This document shows positions 7,907-33,320 of a stretch of DNA of 64,000 bases, piece after piece (position 1 is the first letter of the stretch; every line of letters starts with the position of its first letter). The stretch lies in NCBI RefSeq assembly GCF_011745625.1, contig NW_027191457.1:1-64000 (forward strand). Direction: 5' to 3'. Source of the DNA: Cladosporium halotolerans (Eukaryota). The notes below the pieces were generated by a model. The model worked only from the letters and a program-made list of their open reading frames with translations. It was not told where the DNA came from and did not search any database. Position numbers and translations under genes: made by a program.

Positions 7907-8380
7907 GGATTTGTGGGGTTGTGTGCATTTTGAGGGTTTTGTTGTATCATAGATTTCTCGGACCAACGCTCTCAGCTCGTAGTGGGAGATAGAAGGACGT
8001 GCAGAGATCACGCTTGCGCAGATGGTTGCAGAAAGCTCGCATACTGGCATTGTGTAATAACAAGCTATGTGTACCATCATGAATACAGCCTTACACTGAT
8101 GACACACGCAGTCGAGTCGACCTTGAAGCAATCCTCTCGTTCCCTGCAATCATTTCTGGAGCATACCGTAGTTCCTCTATTCGGTCAAGTGGCCCGCCCG
8201 CCCAGGCCGATCAGCATCCCCACTTCAGGGCTCAGGAGCGTCGGCTTGCTCCCACATCGCTATCTGCTACAGATAAGGCATCATTCTATCGACTGGGCAA
8301 AACTCCGTCGATCGCTCTGCTACTTGCGATATGCCCGCCTCTCGATCGTCGGACAGCGATCATTTCCAAAACCGCCCGCA

Positions 8381-10694
8381 ATGGCCGACGTGATTAGACC
8401 CGCGAGCCGCAGGCGGGCAGGTCGCAAGACGAAGTTGTGCAGGCCGAGCCTGTCCTATACAGGGTAGGTCTAGCCAACATTCCACGATTTCTATCAGTTG
8501 AAGCTAATCTGCGCGACGAAAGCTGCTGGACGTGCCGCAAGCGCCGCGTCAAATGCGACGAGCGGCCTGTCGCCTGCAAGTGCTGCGAGAACGCCGGGCT
8601 GGCCTGTGGCGGATACGACGTCGAGCTGATCTGGGATGCTGGGGAGCGCGGCGAGGGTAGTGGGACTCGTCGATTTCGGAGGCAGATTAGGCCTGGTAGG
8701 TGTGGTGTTGCAGATGCACGTGTGGCGTTACGTGAAGGGGAAGCTTGCTGACAGACGGAAGATAGCAGTACTTGCCGTTTGATGACGGACGAGGAGATAT
8801 CGCAAACGCTGACGCGCGTGGATAGGTGCGCGAGTAGCTCGGAAGACGTGATTGCCGGTCCCTTTGCGGTGTTCAAGTTTGGGAGTGATGATGATGCAGG
8901 GCGGCTCCGATTGCGAGATGCGGGTAGCAGAAGTGTTGAGTCTCCGTCTCTGCCGGAGCCTTCTGACGACAATCTTGAACAAGATGACTATCAGGATGGC
9001 CAAGCTTCCGAGGATCCGTTCAATTCTTTACCAGGCATGAGCGTAGCGCTTGATGATGGTGACCTTCATCATTCGCAATTAGCTGGAGATTCCTCGGCTC
9101 GGACATCGCGGCCTATATCGCCCCATCCTCAGTCTGACTATACAAAATTACCATTACCACAAGAGACACTAGAATGGCAGCCTGCGTTGGTTAGCCCAAG
9201 AATTTGTGGTGAGACTCCTCTTCAATGAGGGCTGTTTAGTAAGTCAACTAACATAATCTCCAGAGCTCACATCCGAGTCCCAGCACCAGAGCTCTGCAAG
9301 TGGTGTATGTTCTTCATCTTCGTCGTCGTCTTTATTGGAATCTTCGGAGTTCTCGTCATCGATACAAGTCATGAGGCATCGGCCTTCTGTCAGTATACCA
9401 CGTCAGGTACATCATCACCTCTTTGCGCCTGACAACCGAGGATCAACTGCAAATCTTCTCATTAATCACTACGCAAATCACATGGTACATCTGATGCAGC
9501 CTATTACGCATCAATCTAACCCCTTTGAACGGATATACCTCCCGCTTGCCATCAGTGGGTCCTCGGATCTGGGCCAGGAGGCTTCATCAGAGGTGATATC
9601 CTCACCTCGAGTAGCTGTTTGTCATAGCCTCTTGGCAGCAGCAGCAAATAACTTACAGGGCTTGGGAAACGGAGAGGGAACGTTACGGGCGACGGCATGC
9701 TACCACAAACAAAAGGCACTCACAGCACTTCGCCATGCTTTAGCATCCCGGTCGGGTGCCTACAAGGATCTCATGACAGCGATGCTTGCACTTGTGTCCG
9801 TAGACGTACGAACCCTCCCTTCGCTTGTTTAGCAATATATTCGCTGACATGCTGTAGATAATCAACGGTGGTACTCAAGACCACTGGGTCCACCTCGACG
9901 CAGCAATGCGGCTTCAGGCGTCAAGGCACTTTGCCAAAATCATCAGCTCGGAGACACGCCAGCTCAACAGCATATGCACTATGCTCCATTTGTTCGCGCA
10001 AACGGCTCTCCTTGCTCCAGAGCCGAGACCTTGGACGGAGTCCTGTGATGCGTGGAGCACCGCCAATCTCGATAGGCTATCGCCAAGCATTGAATACATC
10101 TACGGCATCTCGACAGCTACTGCAACATCTCTCCTGAAGCTTTACAGACTCACTCAACACCTCTGCTACTACACGTCCCTTGAATATCCGGAATCTCTAT
10201 TGCAGGCTTGCGAGGATCTGGGAGACGAGTTATGTTCCTGGTCGATCGCTTTGGAGGAGTTCTCCGCAATTGGCCGAGAGCAGACCTCGATGCTAAAAGT
10301 TGCTCGCGCTCAAGCGACGGCTTTCCATCACGCAGCTCTCATCTACTACTATCGTTCCATCCAGCAATGCGCTCGTAGAGACCTCCATTCAGAGCAGCTT
10401 GCTGTCCTCGCCGCCATGGACGAGGCAGAGTTGCTCAAAAGATCTTCAGGGGATGATGTTGCCATGCCTGCGCCCATAACTTGGCCCGCTTTCATCGCTT
10501 CATGTGAGGCAGTGGGGGAAGACCGCGTAGGTTGGCGGGAGTGGTGGGCGCGAATTCAGCGATATCGGATGTACAACTATGCAAGACAGCAGGAGATTGT
10601 CCATAAGATATGGGAGGAGACGGACAGATCTAACGCCCCTTCTGACTGGAGAGAAACTCTGGTCAAGCTAGAGATCCGGGTGTTACCGGTATAA
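8381..10694 (+). CDS. Zn(II)2Cys6 transcription factor with Fungal_trans_2-type C-terminal domain (Arg81-like)
   Basis: Intron 8464-8523 yields SYTGCWTCRKRRVKCDERPVACKCCENAGLACGGY. Later exons encode LLINHYANHM...NPFERIYLP and APITWPAFIASCEA. Several introns. Confidence 0.9.
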
Positions 10695-10763
10695 GGGCAC
10701 ATGTCCTAGTCATACTCCAGCACCCTACCAAGTTGCCGAGATCGTAGGGCAAAGTATAAGGCT

Positions 10764-12575
10764 TTACTCAATGACCGACCATAGCTTGCCCCATCCTTTC
10801 CTCGGAACATATGGCAATTCGGCATCTTCGACTTCCTGCAGCCCAGTGTGCATATCGATATCCGCCACATTCAACGTCCACTTGTCATGCCTTGCCCAAA
10901 TTCGGTGGCCAAAGTACACTGCGAAGAAGATGGGAATGCTGACATATGAAGTCAAAAACCCATCAGCCGACCAATTTTGAGGAAAGAAAACCGTGAAGCC
11001 GTTTATCAGGCAAAGCAGAGAGAATGCCATCATTGCGAACCAAGCGCCGTAAGGCTGAAGCCTGCTGTGATAAGGCGATTGCACCTTGTGATAGGCACAC
11101 GCCTTCCTAAAACGAAGAAAGATGATCATGCAGCAAGCCCAGCTGATCATGCCCCAGGCGTTCGTCAAGTTCACAAACCAGGTGAAGACCGTTCCTCCTG
11201 AGTCGCTAACGTTGAGGTACGACAGCAGTGTGAAGACGGAAGAGGCAGCGACTGCGTATACTGGAATGCCAGAGGCGTTGCACTTCTTGAAGACGCGTGG
11301 CGCATTGCCCGCTAGGGCCAGAGAGTACAGTGAGCGGGCGCTCATGTATAAGAAGGAGTTCCCGGACGACCAAGCTGAGAGAAGAATCACCGCGTTGACA
11401 ATGCTGGGGAGGACGTCGATCCCGGCGTTTGCGATTGCGACGACGAACGGGCTGGATCCGGCACCTGCCTCCCCGCTGAGCAGCGACGGCGAGTCGCTGG
11501 GCGCAGTCTGATTCAGTCAGTTGGTGAGGCCTTGTCTTGATCGTTCAGTAAAACTTACGACGCCAATGGCTAAGACCCCCAGAATATAGAAGCATACGAG
11601 TCGGTAGATATATCTCTTTGCAGCTTTCGGGAGGTTTCGACGCGGCGACTCCATCTCTCCGGCCTGTATGTTATTAGCATTAATTACCGACTGACTGTTG
11701 AATGACGTACCGTGAAGATGATAAGCTCGGGTGCAAAGACGAACGGAAAGATGCAGTTGACTAGCGTTGCCCAGAAGGAGATCAACAGGCCAACATCTCC
11801 TTCGCGGATCATGGCGTGCGCGGCTCCAGGCTCGTTCCAATAACGGAATCCCAGGCGGTCTCGCGTAGGGCCACCGCCCCAGAAGAGGATAAACGACAAC
11901 AGCAGAAGGCCGATCATCAGAATGACTTTGGTGCCTGCGAACCAGAACTCAGTCTCGCCATAATATCGAACAGGCAGAAAGTTCAAGCCAACAATCACAA
12001 CAAGCATAATCGTCATCCAGACTGCTATATTGACTGGGTTTGGCCAGTAATCAATGACAAGGCCAGCCGCTGTAATTTCATACGGCACCAAAATCCCCAG
12101 CGCGTACCAGTAAAGCCATCCCAGGGCGAACCCCATCGACCGGGAAACGTATCGGCTCCCGTAGTATGCCATGGAAGCTCCATGCACAGGGAGATAGGTT
12201 GCCACTTCGACGATGGCTGTGACGACGCAAAAGATCAAGAAGGACACGATGATGAATCCAGCCAGGATGAAAGCGGGCCCTCCCAGGGCGAGTGTTCTGC
12301 CAGTGCCCACGAAGAGACTGATACCTCGTTAGAATATCACGCAATAAGTCGGCCGATCAGACTCACCCTGTACCAATCGATCCGCCTAGTGCAATCATCT
12401 GAGCATGACGACTTTTCAACCCTCTCTGGGTAGTCTTGATGCCCGGCTCGTTTAGTTGATGGTCCACGGTAGCGCTCATGACAGAGCCACGCCTGGCAGA
12501 AATCCCATCGCCATCTTTACCAGTCGCTGTGGTCCACTGGTTCTTCTCTTCGTCTACCATCTTGTTGGGATCCAT
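10764..12575 (-). CDS. Amino acid permease (APC/YAT family, PUT4/PrnB-like)
   Basis: Motifs KSRHAQMIALGGSIGTG, YYGETEFWFAGTKV and SSGNSFLYMSARSLYSLA; many TM segments; short introns near 12320-12366, 11665-11710 and 11508-11557. Confidence 0.92.
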
Positions 12576-13261
12576 TTTGTAGGGAAATGACAGAGATCAC
12601 GAACCCTAGCAGGAGTTTGCGTTCTCAAAACGTCAAAAGAGAATTACATCTATCAATTTCGATGCCATGTAGGCGTCCGCATATTTACACGATCTAAATA
12701 CTTCGGACCCTTCTGATGGCTGGTCCAGAAGCAGCGTAGAGATACCGATAAGCAGAGTCATTCGCGCCACCGCTGGCTATCGCCTAACTGCTGATGAACT
12801 CGTAGCTGATAAGGTCCTCGGTAGCGATGCTTCAGAAAGTCTGTCGCTCCCTCCTGCTGAAGTGAGCTGTCACCGCTGCGCACGTGAGCGATAGCTCCAG
12901 ATCGTCGGTCTGTCGATCCGCTCGGTCCTTCTGCATTCGGCGCCAAGTCTGCAGAGTGAATGGCATGCCTGTGCCGACACCAGCCACGACAGCTTCACGA
13001 CTCCACGAGCGCGTGTCGTTCCACGCAGAGAAGTGCGCTTATCGTCTCCAATTAGTCTGCTCCCGCGTTCACTGTTCTGAGTAGCTTACCATGCTGATCT
13101 TTGAGTGGCACACGCGTGTGAGCTCCTTGGTTGAGCGGGGCATGCTATGTTTTGAATCGGACAGAATTGAGTATTAATAAATGTAAGTCCCAAAAACCTC
13201 AGACCCCTCTGGCACCGTACGTACTCGATTTTCCACACAAGATTGTAATCGATCAATCACA
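12576..13261. promoter_or_regulatory. Divergent promoter with clustered HGATAR (AreA/NIT2-type) sites
   Basis: GATA sites at about 12650 (-), 12746, 12777 (-), 12807, 12889 and 13039 (-), between head-to-head permease and M24 genes. Confidence 0.6.
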
Positions 13262-14704
13262 ATGGGCTCAATCAAGCCTGTGGAAGTAAAACAGCCGAGG
13301 CCTTTCACAAAGGCCCTCCACTTCTCAAAGGATGAATTCCACCAGCGCCAGCAGCGTGCTTTGGGTCTGATGAAACGAGAAGGTCTTGATGGCTTTCTAT
13401 TGACGAAGCAGGAATCGCTCTACTACCTGACTGGTTATGATACCTTTGGATATGGTGAGTATCCACATAAGATGTCCTGCGACAAATAGTCTTCAATGCC
13501 TGACCGTCCGGCAGTCTTTTTTCAGGCGATGTATTTCTCTTCCGATGGATCCATGCGTCTGATCACGCGCACGCCGGACCTTCGCCAAGCTTTGTACACT
13601 TCAACCTTGAGCTCGAAAGATATCCTCATCCGCCCAGATGATGCCAGCAGCAACCCAGTCGCGCTGGTTCCCGAGGTTCTGAAAGAGTTTGGTATCAACT
13701 CTCCATCTAAGAAGATTGGATACGAGCCAGACTCGGCCACCCTGAACATGCGAATCGGACAGCTCCTGCTGGAAGCTATCGACGGCCTTTGCACTTTGGT
13801 AGACCACAGTACTTTGTTTGGCAGAGAGCTTCGCATCATCAAGTCAGAATCTGAAATGCGGAAAGTCCGCAAAGCCGCTTACCTTGCCGATTTCGCCATG
13901 ATCCGCACGCTCAAGCTTGCGAAGCCCGGGGCGTACGAGGGGGATCTGTGGCGCGAGATCGTCGGTACGGTTTACGAGGGAGGCGGAGACGATCCGGCAA
14001 ACGAGAACATCCTCGTCTCCGGAAACAAGGCTGTTCTGACGCGGTACTCTACCGGGAAAGACGTCGTCGACCGGCAGCTCACACTTGAGCACGCTGGCGT
14101 ATACAAGCACTACCACGCCTGCTTGATGCGGACAGTGCACATCGGCGGAGTCACTCAGCTCGCGCGACGCATGTTTGAAGTCAACAAGTTGCAGATGAAG
14201 GCTGCCATGGAGGCTCTGAAGCCTGGACACGAGATTGGAGACGTTTTCGAGGCCTACGCTCGTGTCGGCGACGAGAATGGCTTCAGGGAGCAGCGGTTCA
14301 ACGCCTGCGGCTACAGCTTGGGTGCTACTTTCGCCCCAACATGGATGGACTTCCCTATGTTTGTGCGGGGGCAGAGTGTCATTGCCCAGCCGGGTATGGT
14401 ATTCTTCATCCACATCATCTTGATGGACCAGGCCACGGACACCGCCAGCTCCATCGGACAGACTGTTGAGGTCACCGCGGGCGGCTGCGTTTCTCTATCG
14501 AAGCTGCCATTCTATGTCACGCGCAAGCAGACTCTTGCTGCTTGGAAAAGTATCCGGAAGGAAGACTATGGGTTCACCGCCGACGAAGAGGACGACGGTG
14601 AGAATTTGCAGGACATCGAGCTCTCTGATGGCGAGGCGGACGATGAAGACTATGACGTCGAATATGACTTCAGCAAGTACACACCATCAAACGCAGTGGA
14701 GTAG
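13262..14704 (+). CDS. M24-fold hydrolase (creatinase/ectoine hydrolase EutD-like; Xaa-Pro peptidase family)
   Basis: Creatinase_N-like start (FSKDEFHQRQ...ESLYYLTGYDTFGY); intron 13455-13514; LRIIKSESEM; LEHAGVYKHYHACLMRT; CGYSLGATFAPTW; PGMVFFIH; acidic C-terminal tail. Confidence 0.88.
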
Positions 14705-14852
14705 ATACATTTCTCAATGATCAATAACGCACACAGTTCAACTATTCGTTCGCGTGAAAGAATTACATTTTGTGGATTTCATATAGTGCAAATCATCGCT
14801 CGATACTTCATGAAGAGGCTTTCAACTTACGAGTGCCTCTGCTTGATTTTGA

Positions 14853-16040
14853 TCATTTGCAAAATTCTGACTCGATCCGCACGAAAGCGTCCACAAGGTG
14901 TTGGATGGATTCAATCTCCACCCATTCTTCGGCTGCATGCAGGCCGTAGCCTTTAGGCCCCCAGATGACACCAAAAATGCCTTTGTCGGCCAAAAGGGCC
15001 ATGTCTGTCCAATAAGTTTCACCCTTGATCTGTGGAGTGGCACCAGTGACCACAGTGGCATGTTCCGCAACCAACTTGACGAAGCTGTGATCAGAAGCGA
15101 CTCCAAAAGGACTTCGCGAGAAGCCAGTGCGCAAGCCAGCTGTGAATCCCGGGACTTCTCTAGTGAGTTTTCGTAGTATCTGCTCGAGTTCCTCCTGTAT
15201 TTCTACCAAATTCTCGCCAGGCACAGTTCTGCGTTCAATGGAGATTGTGCAAGAATCCGGATACGAGTTCACTTCAGCGCCACCTTTGATGACCCCAGCA
15301 TGAATGCTCGGAGCCCCAAGCTTCGGATTGCCCTGCTCGAGCCATCTGAGTTCCAGACGTTGTGAAAGTCGATCAATCTCTACCAGGAAGTAACCAGCTT
15401 TGCATATGGCATCAATTCCTAGATCCGGTCGAGAGCCGTGAGCAGCAACGCCAGAGACTTCTACATAGAAGACTGCTAGACCTTTGTGGGCGTTGATGAT
15501 TGACATCTCGGTTGGTTCTGCCACTATCGCCGCATTGGCTTGCCAGCCTGCTTGGAGCACTTGCTCGGTCCCGATGCTCGCCATTTCTTCGTCAGCAACT
15601 GCAGCAAGGATCACATCACCTTTGAGGTTCAGCGACTTTGCGGTCGCGAGAGCGATCATCGCGGCTGCAAGCCCACTCTTCATGTCAGCACTACCACGGC
15701 CATAGATCTTATTGTCCTGTATTTCTGCGCTCAGTGCATCTCCATCGTAGGTTGACAGGCTGACAGTATCTGTGTGCCCATTGAACATCAGGCTTCTGCC
15801 GCCTCCTGAGCCTCGAACTACGCCAACCACAGACGGCCGCCCTTTGGTTGGTTCGATTCGGTAGCATTCGATGTCGCGTGTTTGGAGCCATTGGCTGATG
15901 AAGTCGGCAATTGCAGTTTCACCCGCACCAGAATCGAGGCCGAGATCCGGGTTAGACGAATCGATTCGGACCAGCGCCTGTGTAAGGGACACCACATCGT
16001 TCAGCCCTTGACCCGGGGGAAGAGATAATCGGTGATTCAT
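14853..16040 (-). CDS. M20 family ArgE/DapE-like deacylase (acetylornithine deacetylase-like), intronless
   Basis: Motifs FNGHTDTV, YGRGSADMKSG, ADEE, AEPT, GVAAHGS and GLHAAEEWV give the full M20 metal-ligand set. Confidence 0.93.
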   Translation of the reverse strand: MNHRLSLPPGQGLNDVVSLTQALVRIDSSNPDLGLDSGAGETAIADFISQWLQTRDIECYRIEPTKGRPSVVGVVRGSGGGRSLMFNGHTDTVSLSTYDGDALSAEIQDNKIYGRGSADMKSGLAAAMIALATAKSLNLKGDVILAAVADEEMASIGTEQVLQAGWQANAAIVAEPTEMSIINAHKGLAVFYVEVSGVAAHGSRPDLGIDAICKAGYFLVEIDRLSQRLELRWLEQGNPKLGAPSIHAGVIKGGAEVNSYPDSCTISIERRTVPGENLVEIQEELEQILRKLTREVPGFTAGLRTGFSRSPFGVASDHSFVKLVAEHATVVTGATPQIKGETYWTDMALLADKGIFGVIWGPKGYGLHAAEEWVEIESIQHLVDAFVRIESEFCK

Positions 16041-17030
16041 GATTCGTCAAAGTGCTTAGAGATATGAAGTTACCCTAAGAAGCTGAGTTGATATTCTGCT
16101 CGAAATCTATTGCCAATGCCCAGGAAGGTCCCTAGTTGTAACGAGTTCTCTGGATCCCCCGCCCTTGAGCACAAACCGGTTCCAAGCTGCGTTTCGCTGC
16201 CCAGATTAGTTTTAATGTGGATCGGTCGACGGTACATTGATAAGCCCCGCAGTCCGTAACATGGTTTGATGGTCCAAACGTCGAAGTAGATAGGAAAGTT
16301 CCAAATAGGCTGTAGCGAGCGAACGCAGATCAGCGGACGGAACGGCCGTGTGGGAACCTTGTCTGATGACTCCGCACGCGCGTCCACGTGGAGGCAACCC
16401 CACTGTAGACATGCCTTCTACACTATTCTCGCCGGCACGTGAGCATGAGGAAATTCGGCTACTAGCCATATCATGCATTGGCATGATATTCTTAGCAAGT
16501 GGAGTGAAATGGGCGATCTCCGCATTTACGATTGTTCCGGGCCGGAACTTTGGTAAGCCGGTTTGACCATCTGAAATGCCAACATCGCAACAGTGTAACA
16601 CTTAAGTATACCTCGTTAAGCTCATGATCTTACATCTCAGATATTAACTCTTCACACAATGAGAGCAAGTAATCTAGTTTCAACTTTATTCGACGGGAAA
16701 GCGAAAGAAGCATTGAATGTCAAACGGAAGGTAGCCTGGACCTGAAGAGAGGATCTCGCAATTGAAGAAATTGAAAGATAACCGCACGAGAAACGTCTTT
16801 TCTTGAGTGAGCAATGGGATAGCTGGGTCATGAATATTTGGAACTCCTGCGCTTGTTAATGGTGTGTACGCTACCAATTCGACGAATGTCTTAGCGCCCG
16901 CTTCCTTTACCGTTAAAAATAGGGATTCTTACATGTAACATTTTCCTCTCAACTTGAGAGCGTGTTTTCCCTATAATCTAAGACTATTATTTAGCAGATT
17001 GACTCCTATTGAGCGAGCTATGTCTCCAAA

Positions 17031-18548
17031 ATGGCAGCCGATTCGAATCGCTTCGGCTCTAGCTGTCCTGCGAGACTGACTTCGGAGCCCCTTGAAGCCG
17101 TGCAACACCTCAAGGTCAGCATCGACAATCCCGAAACTAGCACAAACGACAGCCTGGACTTTGAGCGCTGTAGCGCTCTTCACAACGCTATAGCCAGGCA
17201 TACATGGCAGGCGCAAGGCTACGATCTTGCAGATCTCCCCACGACAACTTGGTGGCAAAAACCGGATTATGCGCCTAGACTAGAAGAACTTCAGGAACAT
17301 CTTCCCGAGAGCCTCATTGAGTTCTTGAAGCGAGCGCTGAGCCCGGCTGCAGAAGAGCTACCAGACAGCTCAAGATATTACTTTTTCTACTTATGTGATG
17401 GCCTCGCCAGTCCCGATTCTCTATGGCATGAAGTCGGAGAACCCGAGGGTGAGATGGGTGGGATTGAACGGATTGCTCTGTATCTAACCGACACTCTTAC
17501 TAGCGACGAGACTCTTGACGCCATCGTGTGAGTGTTTGTCGAACTGTTCCAGGGTGAATGGATTCTGATGCATCCAGATACGACTATGACGCCCACTGGT
17601 GCGTCTTCAACAGCTACCCTTACTTTGTTTTCGAGGATGACGACTCGTCGCCCATATGGCAACGCCTGGAAACAATTTTGACCGCCTGGATTGTGATGAT
17701 CGAGCGGCGAAAGGTAGCGGTGATGCACAAGGACCTCGGCAAGGGGCCAGATCCTGCGTCCGGCGTCTGCCTTGACATGAAGGAGCCGTGGGGATGGGCT
17801 TCGTGGACGAGGGCCGACCTCGAAGACGCCCTTGAAGCCTGGAACGATCTTATCGGTGCCATCAACGACCGACTTCCAGAACCCCGACCTGACCCCTTGT
17901 CACGCTCAAGCTTGTTCGAAGTGGACGACCTCCGCGCAGCAGAAATCGAAGAAGGTAGCTTTGCGTGGGAGTTCTATACCAAGGCATGCAAACCGTACTT
18001 CCAGTTCCTCGGACCAGGTTTGCAGCCTGCCTCCCGAGAACAGTTACTCAGCCGCCCGTTCAGATCGGTTTGGGAAAGCCAGAATCCACGGCCAGATTTA
18101 GGGAGCCCGGAGATCTTCCCACTGCCAATCCTGCTTGGCTCGCAGCTTGCGAACTCCTGGGTAGACAGCTACCAGTACGAAGTTGGGCCCGTCGCTTGGG
18201 GTCTTTACTTGGATATCTTGCATTCTCGGACACTATCATGCCCTTACGAGGACGCGACACGGCTAGTGTTGCCTTACGAGCTCGATGGATGGCAAGCCCG
18301 CGGTCGGGAATGCTGAGCTCTATCAGATCGGCCAGAACCCATTCGAGACAAATCGCGCGACCACGCAGCTGTGGCAAATGCTGAAGAATTTCACTGCGCA
18401 CGTCGACTCTGAAGAGTGGAGGGTCGATGCTAACGGAGTGAGTGAGCCGGCGACCGTGTTCGATAATTTCTTTGTGCATGGAACAGAGCCGGACAGCGAT
18501 GAGGCGGCGAATGTGCGTTACGCAATGCTCAAGAACATGTACCTTTAG
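17031..18548 (+). pseudogene. Fungal hypothetical protein with apparent frameshift near 18285-18300
   Basis: Exon 1 (17031-17527) and intron 17528-17577 join in frame to ORF 17558-18316. The protein-like C-terminus (ELYQIGQNPF...WRVDANGV) continues in another frame with no usable intron. Confidence 0.55.
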
Positions 18549-19196
18549 AACATGTTCCGCCAAATTGCAACGCTGCCTTCATTGCCTTAGATGAGGCAAA
18601 TGGATACATGATGGAACGTTGCCCATGTTGACAGCCAACACAGCTATTGATCGTCCGGAGTGAAATGTGATGTACGTGAGTCCGTAATATCCTGCCGTGG
18701 TATTTTGAGCACGAGAAAGCTTGGAGTGGAGATCGTGGTAGCGATAACACCTCGACACGGACATACGGATCCCAAGGCGCAGTAAGGCGGTGATATCGGC
18801 TTCCCTTTAGAGGCTTAATGCTTGGCTTTCTGGCTCAACGTCGTTTGGAGTTCCCTTTAGCGCTCTAGTTGGTCGCTCTGAACCCTGTTTGTTGCGTTGT
18901 GTGGAGTCGGTGCACGCCCTGGCTGGACGCAACGCCGGCGAAGCATGCACTTGGACAGCTCACCTAAGCAGCTAAAGGAAACCGCGAGCGAATATCAATC
19001 AATCGGCAATCATTACCACTATGGAGTTTACGTGCTACAGATAAGCACTGATAGTTGACAGAACCGTCGAACTCTCCCACAGAAGCCTGTAGCCACGCCA
19101 CTTCCCGCTCGCGTCTTCTTCACTCCTTGCAACATCTGCCATCACTACCATTCAAGGTGTCACACTAGATCACTCGAAACCTCCTGAAACATTACG

Positions 19197-21345
19197 ATGA
19201 TGCATCCATTCGATCCTCTGACATCGGAGGAAATTTACCGAGCGGCAGACGTTGTGAGGCCGCACTTTGGGCGGCATCGGCCCAATTTTCGTGTCCTGAC
19301 GCTGCAAGAGCCCCCAAAGCAGCAGATGATCCCGTTCCTGGAGCAAGAGCACCAACGGTCTCAGAGGTCGCCTCAGCGGCCCGTCCGTTGTGCCCGCGTT
19401 GAAGTCGTGGTGGAATTAGAAGAAGAGAAGAATGCCCTCTTCGAACTTTTGGTCGATCTCGATCAAGACAAAGTCATTGCCAAGCAGCATCAGCGAGGCA
19501 AGCATTCATACATCGATGCCGAGTACATGAAGCAAGTAGAGGCCGCCTGTCTTGCAGATGATCGGATCCAAGACCAGATTCGCACGCTGGATTTGCCCGA
19601 AGGATCCGTGGTTGTCGTTGAGCCTTGGGCCTACGCTACAGATGGTGAGAATGATATGAGCCAACGGCTATCTATGGTACGTGATGATGCCAATCTCGTT
19701 GGACCTCCATGCTGACATCCTGCAAGTGTTGGTTTTACCTTCGACTTGGTGGACACTCTGACTACAATTACTACGCCTACCCATTAGATCTCTGTGCAGA
19801 GGTCTCTGAGAATCTTGGGGTTGTCAAGATCTATCGTCTACCAACCTCTCCAAATGAACGCATCAACAATGAACAGCGCAAGTTTGACCAACGAAGGATC
19901 CATTCGTCATCTCTGAGTGAGTACCATCCCGAGTTGAGGCCTTCCCCAAGGACGACTACGAAGCCATACCAAGTAGTCCAGCCCGAGGGCCCTTCTTTCA
20001 GTATCCAGGGTCAAAAGGTATCTTGGGAGAAATGGACTTTCCGTGTCGGCTTCAATTATCGGGAAGGTCTCACGCTGCACGACATTTGCTACGACAATCG
20101 AAGTCTGTTCTACCGATTGTCGCTTGCGGAAATGTTTGTACCGTATGGTGATCCTCGTGCTCCCTACCCTCGCAAGGCTGCCTTTGACCTTGGAAACGAT
20201 GGAGCAGGCATCAATGCCAACAACCTGCAGCTTGGCTGTGATTGTCTGGGTACGTACAAAGAGACATCCCGGACAACGATTCATCAATGTTAACGCCGAA
20301 CCTTTCAGGCACGATCAAGTATTTCGACGCTTGGCACAATGACTCCAATGGCAAGCCAGTCAAGATGCCAAATGTGGTCTGCTGCCACGAGCAAGACGAT
20401 GGACTCCTATGGAAACACACCAATTTCCGCACCCAAAACGCCGTCGTCGCCCGATCCCGCATCCTCGTTTTGCAGACTGTCATTACGGTCTCGAACTACG
20501 AATACATCTTCGCTTTCCATTTCAGTCAGGACGCTTCAATACATTTTGAGGTGCGAGCGACCGGAATCCTCTCGACGGTACCTGCAGAAATGGATGCAGG
20601 GAAGGTACCCTACGGCACTCGAGTAGCACCGGGAGTGTTGGCTCCGTATCATCAGCATCTGTTCAGCCTTCGGATTGACCCTGCAGTCGACGGCCACGCC
20701 AACTCCTTGGTGGTCGAAGAATCAAAAGCTCTCCCCGTCAACGACCCAGCTGTGCACAACCCTTACGGGGTAGGTTACATCTCGGAGAGCAGCACAGTTG
20801 AATGTGAGGGCGGGCATGATCTTGACTTTACCAAGAACCGGACCTTCAAGATCGTCAATGAAAACAAGATGAATCCAATCACTCAAACGCCAGTCGGCTT
20901 CAAGCTATTGCCAGCTTACAGTCAAATGCTGCTCGCTGATCCGCAGTCCTTTCACGCGAAACGCTCAGAATTCGGCAAGCACGCGGTCTGGGTCACGCGC
21001 TACGAAGACAACGACCTGTTCCCGGCTGGGAAATACACGATGCAATCCAGCGGCGGAGATGGCATCGCATCGGCGATCGCCAAGCGAAACGCCAGTGGGC
21101 AATCGAAGTCCGTTCGGAACAGCGACATCGTGGTGTGGCACACATTCGGCTCTACTCATAATCCGCGTATCGAAGACTGGCCCGTAATGCCGAACGAAAA
21201 AATGATCGTTGGGCTGAAGCCTGTCAACTTCTTTTCCGGAAATCCTGGGCTGGACGTGGCGCCTTCTACCCAAGAGAAGAACAAAAGCGTGCTGTACGAT
21301 GAGAACGCGTCTGATGGAACGCCGTGCTGCCGTTCAAAATTATGA
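19197..21345 (+). CDS. Copper amine oxidase (TPQ), peroxisomal
   Basis: HPFDPLT N-terminus, TVSNYEY TPQ motif, HQH copper ligands, WHTFGSTHNPRIEDWPVMP; C-terminal SKL; introns at about 19677-19727 and 20250-20308. Confidence 0.95.
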
Positions 21346-21677
21346 GCGATGATGGCATTGCTGTGCTCGGAAATATATCAGGCAGCATTTCTTTCAACGG
21401 AGCACAACGATAGACTCTTTACCTCTCAAGCGTCGCAAGGATTCACGTAAAGACGAGGTGAATGTTGCTAGGATGCGGAGGGCCAAGCAAGGGTTCACCT
21501 GCGTATGCTCATGGCGAACAGCATGTACAGAATCTCCAAGTCTGCTCATGAGTCGTGTGATCGCGGAGGCCTAATGCATCGACTGCTCCGGACCGCTGAA
21601 AGAGGTGGTGGCGGCATACTTATTCAATTTAGACCTGCTACGTACATGAGTCAGCGATGTCTGTACTGAGCTGGCCA

Positions 21678-23894
21678 TCACTTCCCCTCTGCTCGTGCAA
21701 CAAGCCCCTCATCCAGCCCAACGATATCGAAGACGCCTCTGTCTCCCTTCCTTTGAGCCCACACGACGTCTCCCTTTAAGTATACGACGACGCCACCCTT
21801 TCCCGTTGCACTCGCTGTGATCCGGAAAAGTGGGAGTCCAGTGCTCTGATGCGCTTCTCGCAAAGGCACGAGTGTGAGGTCTTCTTCCGCGCACCACGAC
21901 TCGACAACGTCGCGGAAGTCGACTGCTTCTTGCACAGCAGGGGCTCTTGTTGGTGGAGCCGGCACGTTGAGCTTCTTCGCGGCTTCTTTTGCGATTGGGC
22001 GCGCAGGTCCAGCTGCTGGCGGGCGAAGAGTGGAAATATCTTTGCCCTCGTCAAGAAGGTCGAGAGCGGAATTGATCATCTCGCTGCCCTTCGCCCATTC
22101 TTTTTGCACGTCGGGCTGTGAGAAAATCGGTGCAGGAATCTGTTCACTCCACCATCTCACCCACTGACCAATCTCATCGAAGCTTGCACCTTCTGATGTG
22201 AGCCACAGATGTAAGGTGGACAGCCACTTCGGGAAGAATTCCGCAACAAAAAGCCGCGCTAGAATCTCGGGTTTGAGGAATGACTGCCACTTGAGAACAT
22301 CTTCCAGGGGAGTGAGGTCCTGGTCTGAGGGGTCGATTTCGAGGTTGGTAGAGAGATGCAGTGACAAGCGCGGAAGCAGGTGGCGCACGAACAGGTGATC
22401 CAGCTCGGTGGTCAAGAGGTTCCGCCATTCCTCCAAACCTGGGAGGATACCCGAAGACACGTCCCAACCATCGATGACATGCCTGATCTTGCGTTTCACA
22501 TCGGACATAAGGGAGTTCTGTGCTTTCGGGTCCAGTTGGTATGGTGGCAGATGCTGTAGCCAAGGGAAAAGATAGGCGTGAGGTTGCGTGTGCTTCAAGT
22601 TCGCATGTCTGTGATGATGGCTCCGTTTACGAGCATCCCAAGTTTGAAGAGCGGTCGCAAGTTTCGGTACAAGGAGCTGATCCGTGAGATTGCTGAAGAT
22701 GAACGTCGGCAGAAGAGGCCGCCAGGCGCTGATCAGCTTTGTAAGCGGCGCAGAATCCAGAACAGACCAATTTGTGATGGCTGTACGTATTTTCGGCAGC
22801 CAAAGTGTGTAGACCATCGTCTCGTAAGGAGACGTGGTTTTTTGACGTCTTGATTTCGTGTAAGGATTGCCCTGGTCGTGGATATCGCTCGCTTTGCTAA
22901 GGGAGTCGTGTGACTGTCCAAGAATCGTCTTTAGCTCGCCGAGCTCGGCCACCAACAGTTCTGGCTCTTCGAGCGGCTCCCAGCCATCCATCTTACGCTT
23001 GAAGAGCGGATGTAACGCTCCGACTGCGGCTTCCTGCAAGTCATACCGTTCAATGTCATGCTTGAATGTATTCTGCAAGTCCCTCAACTTCCCAATCATG
23101 ACTTCCCACGACGTCTCATCTTGCAGATCTCCGACCTTAAGCCCTTCCACGCCTTCCACTAGCTTAGCCATCCTCTCTAGGTCCTCTTTGTTTTGCTCGT
23201 CCTCGATCGCCAACCGCCCACCATGTTCTTCCATGTACACTCTTTGCTCTTGCAATCCATGCCAACTCTCAATGAATGCCTCCAGCTCTAATCTTTCCCT
23301 TCGCGCGATCTTCTCCGCTTCGGAGTCTTCCCTTCCTTCAGCGCCGGTAGGGGTCATGAGCCCAGCAGCAGACGTCAAAAGCTTCGTCGCACCGCCCGTC
23401 GCATCTACGATGCTATCCAGCATCTTCGCCGGAACTTCGAGGCCAGGTGCAGCCGCAGCAACATCCGCCGCAGTGCGGTACTTGGTCTTCCTCTTGCCCA
23501 TCCCCGAACTCCCACCAGGGGTGCTTGTCCCACTAGCTGTCCCACTTCCAATCCCTCCTTGAGCCTTCTTTCTCCTTTCTCGCCTTTTCCTCTTCTCATC
23601 CTCACTACTATCTTCGTACTCCTCGCCTCTCTGCTCCGCCTTGCGCCTCTGCTCCTGCTTGTACTGTGCCGTGCGCTCGCTCACCGCGCCAACACCAGCG
23701 CCTTGCGGGCGCATCTTGACCTCGATCGGGTTCACAATTCCCTCGCCTTCGGCTCCGAGACCCTGGCCTTCCTTGTAGCCCATTTTGGCCATCATGCGCT
23801 GCGCGAACGACATCTTGCCTCCGGCCATTTTGGGCGCTTTGTGAGGGCCGTCGTTTTGATGAGCGGTTTTGCGCTTCATTCCTAGGCCCTCCAT
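21678..23894 (-). CDS. G-patch spliceosome disassembly factor (TFIP11/Spp382/Ntr1-like)
   Basis: G-patch SFAQRMMAKMGYKEGQGLGAEGEGIVNPI, followed by a GCFC-like region (FFPKWLSTLHLWL). Confidence 0.88.
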   Translation of the reverse strand: MEGLGMKRKTAHQNDGPHKAPKMAGGKMSFAQRMMAKMGYKEGQGLGAEGEGIVNPIEVKMRPQGAGVGAVSERTAQYKQEQRRKAEQRGEEYEDSSEDEKRKRRERRKKAQGGIGSGTASGTSTPGGSSGMGKRKTKYRTAADVAAAAPGLEVPAKMLDSIVDATGGATKLLTSAAGLMTPTGAEGREDSEAEKIARRERLELEAFIESWHGLQEQRVYMEEHGGRLAIEDEQNKEDLERMAKLVEGVEGLKVGDLQDETSWEVMIGKLRDLQNTFKHDIERYDLQEAAVGALHPLFKRKMDGWEPLEEPELLVAELGELKTILGQSHDSLSKASDIHDQGNPYTKSRRQKTTSPYETMVYTLWLPKIRTAITNWSVLDSAPLTKLISAWRPLLPTFIFSNLTDQLLVPKLATALQTWDARKRSHHHRHANLKHTQPHAYLFPWLQHLPPYQLDPKAQNSLMSDVKRKIRHVIDGWDVSSGILPGLEEWRNLLTTELDHLFVRHLLPRLSLHLSTNLEIDPSDQDLTPLEDVLKWQSFLKPEILARLFVAEFFPKWLSTLHLWLTSEGASFDEIGQWVRWWSEQIPAPIFSQPDVQKEWAKGSEMINSALDLLDEGKDISTLRPPAAGPARPIAKEAAKKLNVPAPPTRAPAVQEAVDFRDVVESWCAEEDLTLVPLREAHQSTGLPLFRITASATGKGGVVVYLKGDVVWAQRKGDRGVFDIVGLDEGLVARAEGK

Positions 23895-30162: not shown

Positions 30163-31755
30163 ATGGGATCCAAGACACCTGAAGGGGACCATGAAGGCCC
30201 AAATGGTGAGACAAAACTCCATTCTATGCAGGCCTAACTCTTATCCGCTTCAGGCTCGTCCTCTTGCAGCACCATTGCTGACGTCAATCCTCCTAAATCC
30301 GCTTCAGCCAGTGGACTTCTTCCTGGAACGCTTGATGGAGAAGGTGAGAATGGCGATGACGATGAAGATGATGCTGCAGCCGCCATAAAGCTCGGTCATG
30401 AGCCCACCAACGGTAGGTCGTCGAAAGGCTCTTCCTCTATTCGAGTATGACTAACGGCTACTTTAGGCAAGAAGAAAAAGCGCAAGAACAACCAAAAGAA
30501 GAAGTCGAAAGCGTCCAAGGCGCACCAGGCTGTTCCTCCGCGGATCGAGCTCGACGATTTGTTCCAAGACCAGTGCTACCCAGAGGGTGAGCTGGTGCAA
30601 TACGCATGCAGCAATGGTAATCTGAGACGGACCACTGCGGAAGAACTTCGCCATCAAGCCGCTATGGAAAAGATGGACGGCGAGTTTCTGAACGACTACC
30701 GCAAGGCGGCCGAAACTCACCGACAAGTCCGCCACTACGTGCAGACAATCGCGAAGCCCGGTGTTTCCATGAGTACGTTGGCTGACGAGATTGAGGGCGG
30801 CGTTCGAGCTCTCGTTGGTCATCAGGGGATTGGGACTGGAGATGCTCTCAAAGCTGGAATGGGGTTCCCGACTGGTTTGGCCTTGAACAACGTGGCGGCT
30901 CACTGGACTCCCAATCCTGGAGCCAAAGAGGTCATACTCCAGTACGATGATGTTCTCAAGATCGACTTTGGAGTCCATGTCAACGGCAGGATTGTCGACA
31001 GTGCGTTCACCGTTGCTGCAAATCCGGTCTACGACAACCTGCTTGCGGCCGTAAAAGCTGCCACCAACGCTGGACTTCAAGTAAGCATTCCGACTTCGTC
31101 GATGTGTACTTATCTGACCGATTCCCTTTTAGGAAGCAGGTATCGATGCTCGAATCGACCACATAAGTGAAAGGATCCAGGAAACTATGGAGAGCTACGA
31201 GGTCGAGCTTAACGGAAAGACAATTCCCGTCAAAGCCATTCGTGGCCTCACTGGTCATGATATCCTGCGGTACAAGATTCATGGCGAGAAGCAGGTGCCA
31301 TTTGTCAAAACGAAGTCTAACCAACGCATGGAAGAGGGCGACGTGTTTGCCATTGAAACCTTTGGGAGCACAGGGAGAGGTCGCATTAGAGATGATGTCG
31401 GCGTCTACGGCTATGGCCGCAACGAGGGCATGACACCTTCCGGTGCCCTCTCGCGTCCTGCCAAGTCTCTGCTCAAGACGATCGATGACAACTTCGGTAC
31501 TCTGGTTTTCTCCAGACGTTACCTTGAGCATCTCGGTGTGAAGAACTATCATCTCGGCATGAAGTCACTTCTCTCAGAAGGCATCGTGGATTACTATGAG
31601 CCTCTAATCGACATTCCAGGCTCTTATGTCGCGCAGTTTGAACATGTGAGTGAATCCGACTCGAGCTAGTGGAAGTTTCTGGCGCTGACCTTCCTCAGAC
31701 TGTGCTCATCAAGCCCAATTGCAAGGAAGTAATTTCTCGAGGGGATGACTACTGA
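30163..31755 (+). CDS. MAP2: Methionine aminopeptidase 2
   Basis: Motifs [17 protein letters not shown]...[34 protein letters not shown] and YVAQFEH; terminal exon [18 protein letters not shown]; four introns. Confidence 0.93.
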
Positions 31756-32306
31756 ACAAGCAAAGGCACCTGTGCCTAATTCTGTTGTGGTTCTCGCAAA
31801 TTTGATTTTTGTACTCTCTCTACAAAGCTGCAACAGCGGCAGAGAATGCGATCAAAAGCATCTCAACATGCTATCGGCGTTGACGAAGCTCCTCTACTGA
31901 CTCAATACAATCTTTCAAATCATACTTCGATTTCTTGACAACTCCGTAAATATTCCGATAGCTGTATGCCATGGTAAAGAGGCACGTAGGCTCGCCAAGG
32001 ATCTTCAAGTTGGAATGCGGCGACGGACATTTTCCAAACATACACCTTTCGGGCGCTTATATGAGGCTCAAGGGCGGCCATGTTCTCCCATTGAATTGTG
32101 TGGAGAGGACTTCACCATGGCTGCCTAGAATGTTAATGCGCTACGCGGTGATGAGGCTTACGACGCGGCCCCGCCAAGTAGGACTAGGCACACAGTGATG
32201 TTACATTCAACAGACACATAAGAAGCACATCACACTCGGTTCCTTGAGTGATCGAACCAGACAACCCGAAGCTCACTTTTCCCAATACCCACAGCTCGCC
32301 CCCGCC

Positions 32307-33320
32307 ATGGCCGACGAAAGACAACCTATGTCGCTGCAACAATTGCTCGACGAACCGAAGGGCAAGACAAAATACTTCGCTGACCAGGCGTTCATGCTCC
32401 ATGTATTCTGGGAAGCACCGGATATGGAGAGTGCTAAGAAAATTATCTCTGCGCTCCAACAATGCGCAGTTGCGACTCATCGCGACACACCCTGTGTTCC
32501 CACCTATCATTTCCGCGTCTCTCAACTCGAGGCAGATGTGGTCAGTCCGCAGCCTGTGACAGCCGGCGAGCACCCACAGCTGTGCGAAGCACACAGAAAG
32601 CTACGGATGGGCGTCCCTAGAGCTGCTGTCGAGGCCGATCTGGCTAGGAGATCCATCGATCCTGCACTACTGGATCTTGATATCAGCGACGCGCTACCGG
32701 CGCAGATGCAACTCAAACCAGTCATGATCGAATGCACAGAGATCTATCTGGACGAGAGATCCTTTTTCGAACACGCCGGGTCTAAAGATTACCTCAAAGC
32801 CTACGGCGAAGTTATGACGCCCGGGTTGAGTAACAAGGCCACGACAGTCCGTCTCGGAAGCCCGACAGCCTACATCATTGACAAAATCCTGGCCCCGATG
32901 CTGAAGGAAGATGTGAAGCCGCTGCAAGGAGACTGCGCGGTTTGGCGCCCGAATGGGGTCTTTCAGCCATCAAGCGCGTTGATGTTGTCGATCAACGCAG
33001 TCGGAACCGTGGATAGCGTCCTGTCAGCATTTCCCGTTGGACTGAGCTCGATTACTACGACCTTTGTTGCGTTCAACCACCCACTTCGTGAAGGAGTGGT
33101 ACGCATCATTTGTGTTTTACCACAAGTTCCAGACGACGCGGTGTTGGGAGGCTTGGGTGCCCTGAATGTTAAGGGGGCGGAAGTGCATTGTGAGGAAACG
33201 GACCAAGAAATTATAGTCGAATCCCTTCGCCGAGCTTTGCCAGACTTGGCCTGCGGTGTTAACTCATTACACTCCGGGTACGTTTTACATGATAAAGCCG
33301 CCCAGCTAGGATTGGAGTAA
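32307..33320 (+). CDS. Hypothetical protein, possible dimeric alpha-beta barrel (ABM-like) N-terminal domain
   Basis: Intronless ORF of about 337 aa. THRDTPCVPTYHF and CTEIYLDERSFFEHAGS resemble the ABM 'E-x-Y...AxxxH' pattern. Confidence 0.7.
   Translation: MADERQPMSLQQLLDEPKGKTKYFADQAFMLHVFWEAPDMESAKKIISALQQCAVATHRDTPCVPTYHFRVSQLEADVVSPQPVTAGEHPQLCEAHRKLRMGVPRAAVEADLARRSIDPALLDLDISDALPAQMQLKPVMIECTEIYLDERSFFEHAGSKDYLKAYGEVMTPGLSNKATTVRLGSPTAYIIDKILAPMLKEDVKPLQGDCAVWRPNGVFQPSSALMLSINAVGTVDSVLSAFPVGLSSITTTFVAFNHPLREGVVRIICVLPQVPDDAVLGGLGALNVKGAEVHCEETDQEIIVESLRRALPDLACGVNSLHSGYVLHDKAAQLGLE

Follow-up and report, generated by a model that had tools for sequence, protein, structure and literature searches.

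An M24-family protein of Cladosporium halotolerans without the canonical metallopeptidase site, and its linkage to an M20 deacylase gene across fungi

We analysed a window of 64,000 nucleotides from Cladosporium halotolerans (contig NW_027191457.1, positions 1 to 64,000 of the forward strand), in which a gene for an M24-family protein occupies 13262-14704 on the forward strand, with one intron and a spliced product of 460 aa. Exon 1 (13262..13454) encodes residues 1-64 and the start of a Creatinase_N domain (Pfam PF01321, E 1.8e-7) and is covered by RNA contigs; exon 2 (13515..14704) encodes the remainder of this N-terminal domain, the pita-bread domain (PF00557, E 2.9e-24) and a C-terminal tail. 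The two are separated by a 60-nt spliceosomal GT-AG intron (GTGAGT...CAG, 13455..13514), and contigs from three of three RNA runs, belonging to three studies and aligned to 10500-16300, skip exactly these 60 nt with GT..AG ends; in a fourth public run on the same stretch the intron region is covered as one unspliced piece. Read without splicing, the gene meets an in-frame stop at codon 76, and the spliced product is identical to a Cladosporium halotolerans record (KAL1588912.1, our P0306). The gene is fungal, integrated among fungal neighbours, and expressed. A preliminary description of this DNA, made from sequence alone, had proposed the same gene, intron and active-site motifs and had argued that the gene is genuinely fungal; both sequence and RNA splicing agree with it. 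Contamination can be ruled out through the splicing seen in RNA, the matching record and the host-like GC3 (0.67, where ten neighbouring frames span 0.52-0.67), and neither GC nor GC3 puts a foreign mark on the gene. Not every family member has the intron: a fungal metagenome orthologue (locus L087) is a single, intronless open frame.

The M24 gene lies among several genes that might act with it. Converging on it is a single-ORF gene for an M20 deacylase of the ArgE/DapE family (14853..16040, reverse strand; TIGR01910 240 bits, cut-off 217.6), whose ORF ends 148 nt from the M24 stop and which has an RNA contig in run X5. Its residues H88, D118, E150, E151, E174 and H367, which we take to be the typical M20 metal sites, are invariant in 31 rows, and the deacylase is intact. 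Divergent from the M24 gene is an amino-acid permease gene of the yeast amino acid transporter type (10764..12410, reverse strand, 5' end approximate; PF00324, TIGR00913), an intron of which is skipped at 11507-11559 in run X4, and beyond it lies a gene for a Zn2Cys6 transcription factor (8381..10694, forward strand, start approximate; PF00172, PF11951), a candidate regulator of the cluster. We note that Zn2Cys6-type CGG motifs occur upstream, in a list made without a control and given no weight. RNA contigs represent the M24 and M20 genes in run X5 and the M24 and permease genes in runs X4 and X6, although co-regulation is beyond the reach of such contigs. On the far side of the M20 gene, all on the forward strand, are a two-part ORF with no Pfam match (17013-18316), a copper amine oxidase gene (19188-21345) lying roughly 3 kb past the M20 gene, a second M24 gene that looks by eye like methionine aminopeptidase 2 (30451-31669; Pfam M24 match 30697-31083) and a 373-aa open frame (32199-33320).

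None of the five metal-ligand sites of the M24 protein is canonical: where prolidases have D-D-H-E-E it reads E256, C267, Y331, H364 and G379. In P. horikoshii prolidase (1WY2) the ligands are Asp212, Asp223, His287, Glu316 and Glu330 and the substrate His is His195 (PMC2814137). The first four sites and Arg241 were placed by a HMMER alignment to 1WY2; in a profile alignment to a Bacillus Xaa-Pro peptidase, read on the orthologue P0038, Gly379 falls opposite the Glu of that enzyme's 'GVRIED' motif. In the alignments Arg241 (14042..14044, forward strand, as for all the sites that follow) takes the pita-bread substrate-His site (1WY2 His195, EutD His238); Glu256-Cys267 (14087..14122) covers both Asp sites, with Glu256 equivalent to EutD Glu255 and His265 to EutD His264; N327-A328-C-G-Y331 (14300..14314) has Tyr at the His site and Ala against EutD Arg326; and His364 and Gly379 (14411..14458) stand at the two Glu sites. 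The M24 protein therefore has no canonical M24 metallopeptidase site, and the dinuclear ligand set has been lost. The reading first made from the sequence, with Glu and Cys at the Asp sites, no His and no Glu, is confirmed against 1WY2, and we can add that the fifth ligand is Gly, that the substrate His is replaced by Arg and that the site described as lacking Glu is a conserved His.

The altered site is shared by the whole family. Across 27 fungal and 151 non-fungal rows R83, D86, R241, E256, Y264, H265, Y331 and W341 are invariant (Arg at 241 in 27/27 and 151/151, that is 178/178), while His364 is found in 27/27 and 146/151 and Gly379 in 27/27 and 148/151. The conservation of Y264, H265 and position 267 is partly built in, because these belonged to the retrieval patterns; R83, D86, R241, E256, Y331, W341 and H364 lay outside them, and the family-wide invariance of the first six of these argues for a live active site. 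A pseudogene or pseudoenzyme is unlikely, given 78-90% conservation among the fungal orthologues and the invariant polar site.

A single ion might still be held by E256, H265 and H364, and on a rival reading the protein would remain a metalloenzyme whose one metal sits at a new site (Glu256, His364, His265 and optionally Cys267); it would work as a dipeptidase or amidase, and the M20 protein would be a second peptidase acting on the same imported peptides. Peptidase-permease clusters are ordinary in fungi, and we count this for such a peptidase, as we do the Glu, His and Cys at three of the five ligand positions, the near invariance of His364 and the pairing, at L087, of the M24 gene with a carboxypeptidase-S-like M20. 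However, 70 of the 151 non-fungal rows have Ala at position 267, Tyr stands where the His ligand would be and Gly in place of the bridging Glu; moreover, according to PMC2814137, loss of the His195 equivalent in related enzymes abolishes activity, and in this protein that His is Arg. We regard a single-metal peptidase as unlikely, and the name that UniRef gives the protein, 'Probable Xaa-Pro aminopeptidase P', is unsupported.

Both Pfam domains score above their cut-offs and a model of the orthologue P0038 has a pLDDT of 85, in keeping with the M24 fold. EutD, the ectoine hydrolase, is the top match by sequence (E 1.5e-25) and the top Foldseek match of the P0038 model, which also superposes best on EutD in VIA-align (Z 41.9, rmsd 1.8, 381 residues aligned), ahead of the best prolidase (Z 38.8), creatinase (34.4) and the DMSP lyase DddP (28.6). 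The suggestion in the preliminary description of an EutD/creatinase-type enzyme holds to the extent that EutD is the nearest characterised protein in both sequence and fold, but it does not hold for membership: identity to EutD is 26-27%, P0306 misses both NCBIfam ectoine hydrolase cut-offs (111/613 and 149/575 bits; models TIGR02993 and NF038259), and EutD His238 has become Arg. Counted along the alignment to 6TWK, EutD Glu255, His264, Tyr329 and Trp339 are kept as E256, H265, Y331 and W341, whereas His238 corresponds to Arg241 and Arg326 to Ala328; both DoeA types and more distant rhizobial paralogues keep His238 and Arg326. Mais et al. 2020 reportedly described the roles of EutD His238, Glu255 and Arg326 and the metal independence of the enzyme. 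Because the substrate-site His is Arg in 178/178 rows, the M24 protein is not EutD or creatinase itself; the family appears instead to be a distant sister of EutD/DoeA.

Like EutD/DoeA (PDB 6TWK, 6YO9) with EutE/DoeB, the fungal protein combines Creatinase_N with a pita-bread fold, lacks the dinuclear ligand set and is encoded next to a deacylase gene; unlike them it has His at a Glu ligand site, an intron and an acidic tail, and its partner is an ArgE/DapE-type M20 protein instead of EutE, with no DoeB or DoeB2 model among the 25 listed of 48 profile matches. It shares fold and domain order with prolidases and Xaa-Pro aminopeptidases (M24B; 1WY2, 1PV9, E. coli PepP; prolidases at Z 35-39) but none of their five ligands, and Arg stands in place of their substrate His. 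With creatinase (1CHM) it shares the fold but only 20% identity (sequence E 2e-4), ranking it below EutD and the prolidases, and creatinase's catalytic His232 would presumably align with Arg241. DddP, a metal enzyme transferred from bacteria to ascomycetes, is another non-peptidase M24 enzyme, but the fungal protein reaches just 20.7 bits against its cut-off of 600 (NF043017). Creatinase is described as a non-peptidase M24 amidinohydrolase (PMC3187862), EutD is said to need the adjacent deacetylase (PMC8739950), and the EutD/EutE pathway and bimodule are set out (PMC3187862, PMC8739950).

The closest non-fungal likeness is to bacterial proteins titled 'Xaa-Pro peptidase family protein' and encoded in an lgt-pgeF-prs block (WP_017961468.1, UIJ94092.1), a resemblance that the preliminary description had proposed without a search and that our searches bear out. 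These uncharacterised proteins are 41-51% identical to the fungal protein and carry the same active-site signature, and they make up its true orthologous family, but they have neither its tail nor a linked M20 deacylase. The tail is acidic, about 63 aa long (14513..14701, forward strand) and confined to fungi; it is mostly disordered, yet conserved. Its start motif is present in 116 of the 120 best fungal matches and the tail is absent from the bacterial rows; the motifs TRxQT, AAWK and EYDF recur in 112-116 of the same 120, about half of the middle part is Asp or Glu, and pLDDT falls below 50 over residues 418-456 of P0038, predicting disorder. The tail has no Atlas match at 0.9 or above.

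Several observations bear on the origin of the gene. Of 4780 candidate proteins, 3432 score E 1e-20 or better against the M24 protein; the best 120 of these are 78-90% identical, the self match aside, and all 34 that carry an organism name are ascomycetes, which we take to comprise 32 Pezizomycotina and 2 Trichomonascus. No non-ascomycete eukaryote occurs among the organism-named matches, in lists of best matches that are mostly nameless. A library clustered at 50% identity, which carries no taxonomy, holds one full-length fungal-type cluster before the next drops to 44%; the Atlas cluster of the M24 protein is 95% eukaryote, most commonly Ascomycota, and the next two clusters are 99-100% bacterial. 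Among 587 genome loci the best 80 are bacterial by title, with 42-51% identity, and come mainly from Alphaproteobacteria, Arenicellales, Desulfobacterales and SAR324, and the family profile (E < 1e-100) finds members in 32/151 sampled alphaproteobacterial genomes (the class of Thalassospira, G001). We also note that one alphaproteobacterial genome of 3.4 Mb (G132; L196, L199) carries eight family copies at E < 1e-120, four of them within 6 kb. In the host's own genome a search with the M24 protein found only itself, and the other M24 genes (8 loci of 13 Pfam matches; three of these eight show ligand-type motifs at several sites) reach at best 25% identity over at least 100 residues, as against 41-51% to the bacterial family; the protein thus does not nest in a pan-eukaryotic M24 clade.

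All three maximum-likelihood trees (244 rows, FastTree; 71 rows, IQ-TREE with LG+C20 PMSF; 44 rows, LG+F+G4) recover a single fungal clade inside the bacterial family. In the 71-row IQ-TREE analysis the fungi are monophyletic at 100/100 on a stem of 1.42, inside a family of 65 rows that is split at 100/100 from EutD/DoeA-type outgroups. The fungal sister group varies, being Arenicellales-type gammaproteobacteria with FastTree and Thalassospira/Reyranella/Desulfobacterales/SAR324 at 84/81 with IQ-TREE. AU tests on 44 rows, for which the constrained trees came out of short searches, do not reject a fungal position beside the core bacterial clade as its sister (p 0.38 under LG+F+G4, 0.25 under the mixture), and a position sister to the whole family is borderline (p 0.082 and 0.044). 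The phylogeny nests the fungi in the bacterial family in every tree, while the AU test keeps a placement beside the core bacterial clade. Of the horizontal transfer from a proteobacterial source proposed beforehand, a bacterial origin is likely and a proteobacterial donor is a candidate only, since the sister group shifts with method. We note in addition that the Trichomonascus copies (P0083, P0112), from the budding-yeast lineage, group with Aspergillus terreus inside the moulds (FastTree 94, IQ-TREE not resolving), hinting at fungus-to-fungus transfer or hidden paralogy.

Transfer from bacteria is the economical reading because of the narrow eukaryotic range seen: an ascomycete ancestor would have acquired the M24 gene once, with the tail and, in this lineage, the intron gained afterwards. 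Alternatively, there was no lateral transfer, and an old gene, for example a mitochondrial one of alphaproteobacterial descent, was kept only in ascomycetes. The place of the family in a conserved alphaproteobacterial lgt-pgeF-prs block, the long fungal stem and an AU test that does not reject placing the fungi outside the core bacterial clade are compatible with such retention. It would nevertheless require many losses, and it sits badly with the purely ascomycete set of named organisms (34/34 among the best 120 matches), with the fall to 44% after the one fungal-type cluster and with the change from a eukaryotic to bacterial Atlas clusters; we consider it very unlikely.

The linkage of M24 and M20 genes across fungi was absent from the preliminary description and is new here. 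Consecutive locus tags are found in Aspergillus nanangensis (FE257_003699/003700), Cyphellophora (HMPREF1541_11070/11071) and Penicillium psychrofluorescens (PFLUO_LOCUS7071/7072), and in Knufia the two genes are six locus tags apart. We compared the best 120 M20 relatives (76 closest plus 44) with 220 M24 records, using an identical size of the longest contig as a proxy for a shared contig. By this measure 27 of the 76 closest M20 relatives match an M24 record in exact size, 11 of the 27 on contigs shorter than 15 kb, against 0/44 of the remaining listed relatives and a jitter control with a mean of 0.6 and a maximum of 4. With the best 120 M20s compared, at least 16 of the best 120 fungal M24 matches are paired with an M20, as are at least 3/56 in the M24 group whose tail ends in 'GDP'. 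A second cluster layout is seen at L087 (3246-9829), where a threonine-aldolase-like gene, a carboxypeptidase-S-type M20 and an amino-acid permease lie beside the M24 gene.

The history of the M20 gene appears to be a separate one. Its best plasmid matches are bacterial proteins of 47-49% identity. All 27 linked M20s belong to a single clade of 80 rows (FastTree 99), which is itself nested among lyase-M20 fusions; an N-terminal lyase-like piece persists in 13 of the 76 closest M20s, none of which (0/13) keeps the GVG[SA] loop, and the loop is kept in 27/29 among the other 44 relatives. The M20 thus descends from a fusion with a diaminopropionate lyase, of which the lyase half has decayed. No lyase remnant was found in positions 8001-22000 of the window. 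A search for M24 fusions (593-2000 aa) gave 0/3439 candidates scored, which is weak evidence.

It is possible, in view of this ancestry, that the module releases 2,3-diaminopropionate from a five-ring amidine, ureido or N-acyl derivative, to be broken down by a stand-alone lyase-like enzyme. The host genome, which has only one close M20, does encode a diaminopropionate ammonia-lyase-like protein on its own (C46:474581-475624), with the Lys motif kept; the gene (L195 393-1655) is 45% identical to a Paenarthrobacter protein, has one apparent intron and ends where the lyase-M20 fusions of other fungi continue, so that it is a further bacterial-type gene and apparently a split fusion. In bacteria, three of four M20 relatives examined (L186-L188) adjoin a diaminopropionate ammonia-lyase-type gene, two of them also with RidA and a permease, and the lyase occurs in 18/32 alphaproteobacterial genomes with the M24 family as against 16/119 others, a difference uncorrected for kinship and genome size. 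This co-occurrence is unspecific, however, EutD-like genes showing a stronger one; in the M24-linked clade the lyase half has degenerated or been lost, and the lyase is found at 0/162 non-fungal M24 loci. Release of diaminopropionate is, in our estimate, unlikely.

Those 162 non-fungal M24 loci (median 12 kb) give the bacterial context. Neighbours include pgeF at 67, lgt at 52, prs at 50, MttB-like genes at 12 and cyclodeaminase-like genes at 8 (22-30%); M20/EutE-type neighbours amount to three weak matches (30-34%), and no eutA and no close eutBCE genes occur. As the bacterial orthologues lack a matching deacylase, the module is taken to be fungal, and the bacterial function may differ. A minority of bacterial loci carry MttB-like, BKACE, cyclodeaminase-like, PhyH, agmatinase-like or proline-dehydrogenase genes, which are loosely connected by the breakdown of N-methylated or cyclic amino acids; no single pathway emerges from the bacterial neighbourhoods, and six further loci hold scattered amino-acid catabolic genes. 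A recurring Arenicellales cluster (L013, L017, L024, L047, L055, L066, L071) combines cyclodeaminase-like, PhyH, M24, MttB-like methyltransferase, BKACE, ferredoxin reductase, SDR and PaaA-like genes and is probably an undescribed catabolic locus. More distant M24 paralogues adjoin M20s, oxoprolinase, creatininase or carbamoylase genes.

The nearness of EutD raises the question of whether the substrate could be ectoine after all. On this reading the M24 protein, its active site rearranged, would be a genuine hydrolase of ectoine or 5-hydroxyectoine that yields N-acetyl-diaminobutyrate, which the M20 protein converts to diaminobutyrate, and the fungi would eat bacterial ectoines. Beyond the nearness itself, DoeA in Tsukamurella comes with DoeB2, a deacetylase of the M20 type; decay of the lyase half of the linked M20 is expected if the product is not diaminopropionate; a product with a beta-hydroxy group would fit the threonine-aldolase-like gene at L087; and the copper amine oxidase gene is just 3 kb away from the M20 gene. 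Yet the residues His238 and Arg326, kept in both DoeA types, are never kept in the M24 family, the scores fall far short of the ectoine hydrolase cut-offs, and the 162 bacterial loci are devoid of eutA and of close eutBCE genes. Furthermore, 19 of the 23 alphaproteobacterial genomes with an EutD-like gene also carry the M24 family (151 genomes, uncorrected for kinship), which suggests a different substrate. Given the different catalytic signature and this co-occurrence, ectoine is most likely not the substrate of the fungal module, and we hold a true ectoine hydrolase to be doubtful.

We favour, at a probability of roughly 0.58, a hydrolase-deacylase module in which import by the permease, metal-free ring opening by the M24 protein and deacylation by the M20 protein would follow one another, as in EutD/EutE. 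The M24 protein would be a soluble, probably dimeric pita-bread C-N hydrolase. The permease would bring in a small N-heterocyclic amino-acid derivative, such as a cyclic amidine or lactam; the M24 protein would open a C-N bond without a two-metal centre, with Glu256 and a His (364 or 265) serving as acid/base and Arg241 taking over carboxylate binding from EutD's Arg326; and the resulting N-acyl amino acid would then be deacylated by the M20 protein. The reciprocal swap of His238 to Arg and Arg326 to Ala suggests a relocated carboxylate-binding Arg, with the acid/base role passing to another His (364 or 265). EutD/EutE logic would thereby have been built from two separately acquired bacterial-type genes. 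Against this module stand the bacterial orthologues without a matching deacylase, of which 67/162 lie beside pgeF in a housekeeping block, and the fungal M24 genes without this M20, such as that at L087 with its carboxypeptidase-S-type M20 and aldolase. The small share of fungal M24 matches paired with an M20 (at least 16 of the best 120, against the best 120 M20s) also counts against it, as does the AU result on the position of the fungi beside the core bacterial clade.

M24 enzymes that are not peptidases are a known kind, as are transfers of genes from bacteria to fungi. We found no paper on this M24 family or its fungal members in the main texts of the open-licence literature, and the M24 gene may already figure in horizontal-transfer catalogues published as supplements or in subscription papers. 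The findings nevertheless suggest an undescribed two-step route for consuming a small nitrogen compound. A more specific proposal, that ascomycetes hold an EutD/EutE-like pathway made from two independently acquired bacterial genes, an M24 hydrolase with Arg in place of His and an M20 deacylase freed from a lyase fusion, and consuming ectoine, hydroxyectoine or a related ring osmolyte, is possible but improbable; if true, it would mean ectoine-type catabolism in a eukaryote with a new catalytic arrangement, and would name a function for a family present in about one fifth of the sampled alphaproteobacterial genomes. More generally, a family labelled as peptidases, found in 32/151 alphaproteobacterial genomes and in many ascomycetes, is without a peptidase site, and fungi have apparently assembled a catabolic module from two genes of bacterial type that do not adjoin each other in bacteria. 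Whereas the bacterial housekeeping context does not make the substrate directly testable, the fungal cluster, with its permease, hydrolase, deacylase and regulator, does.
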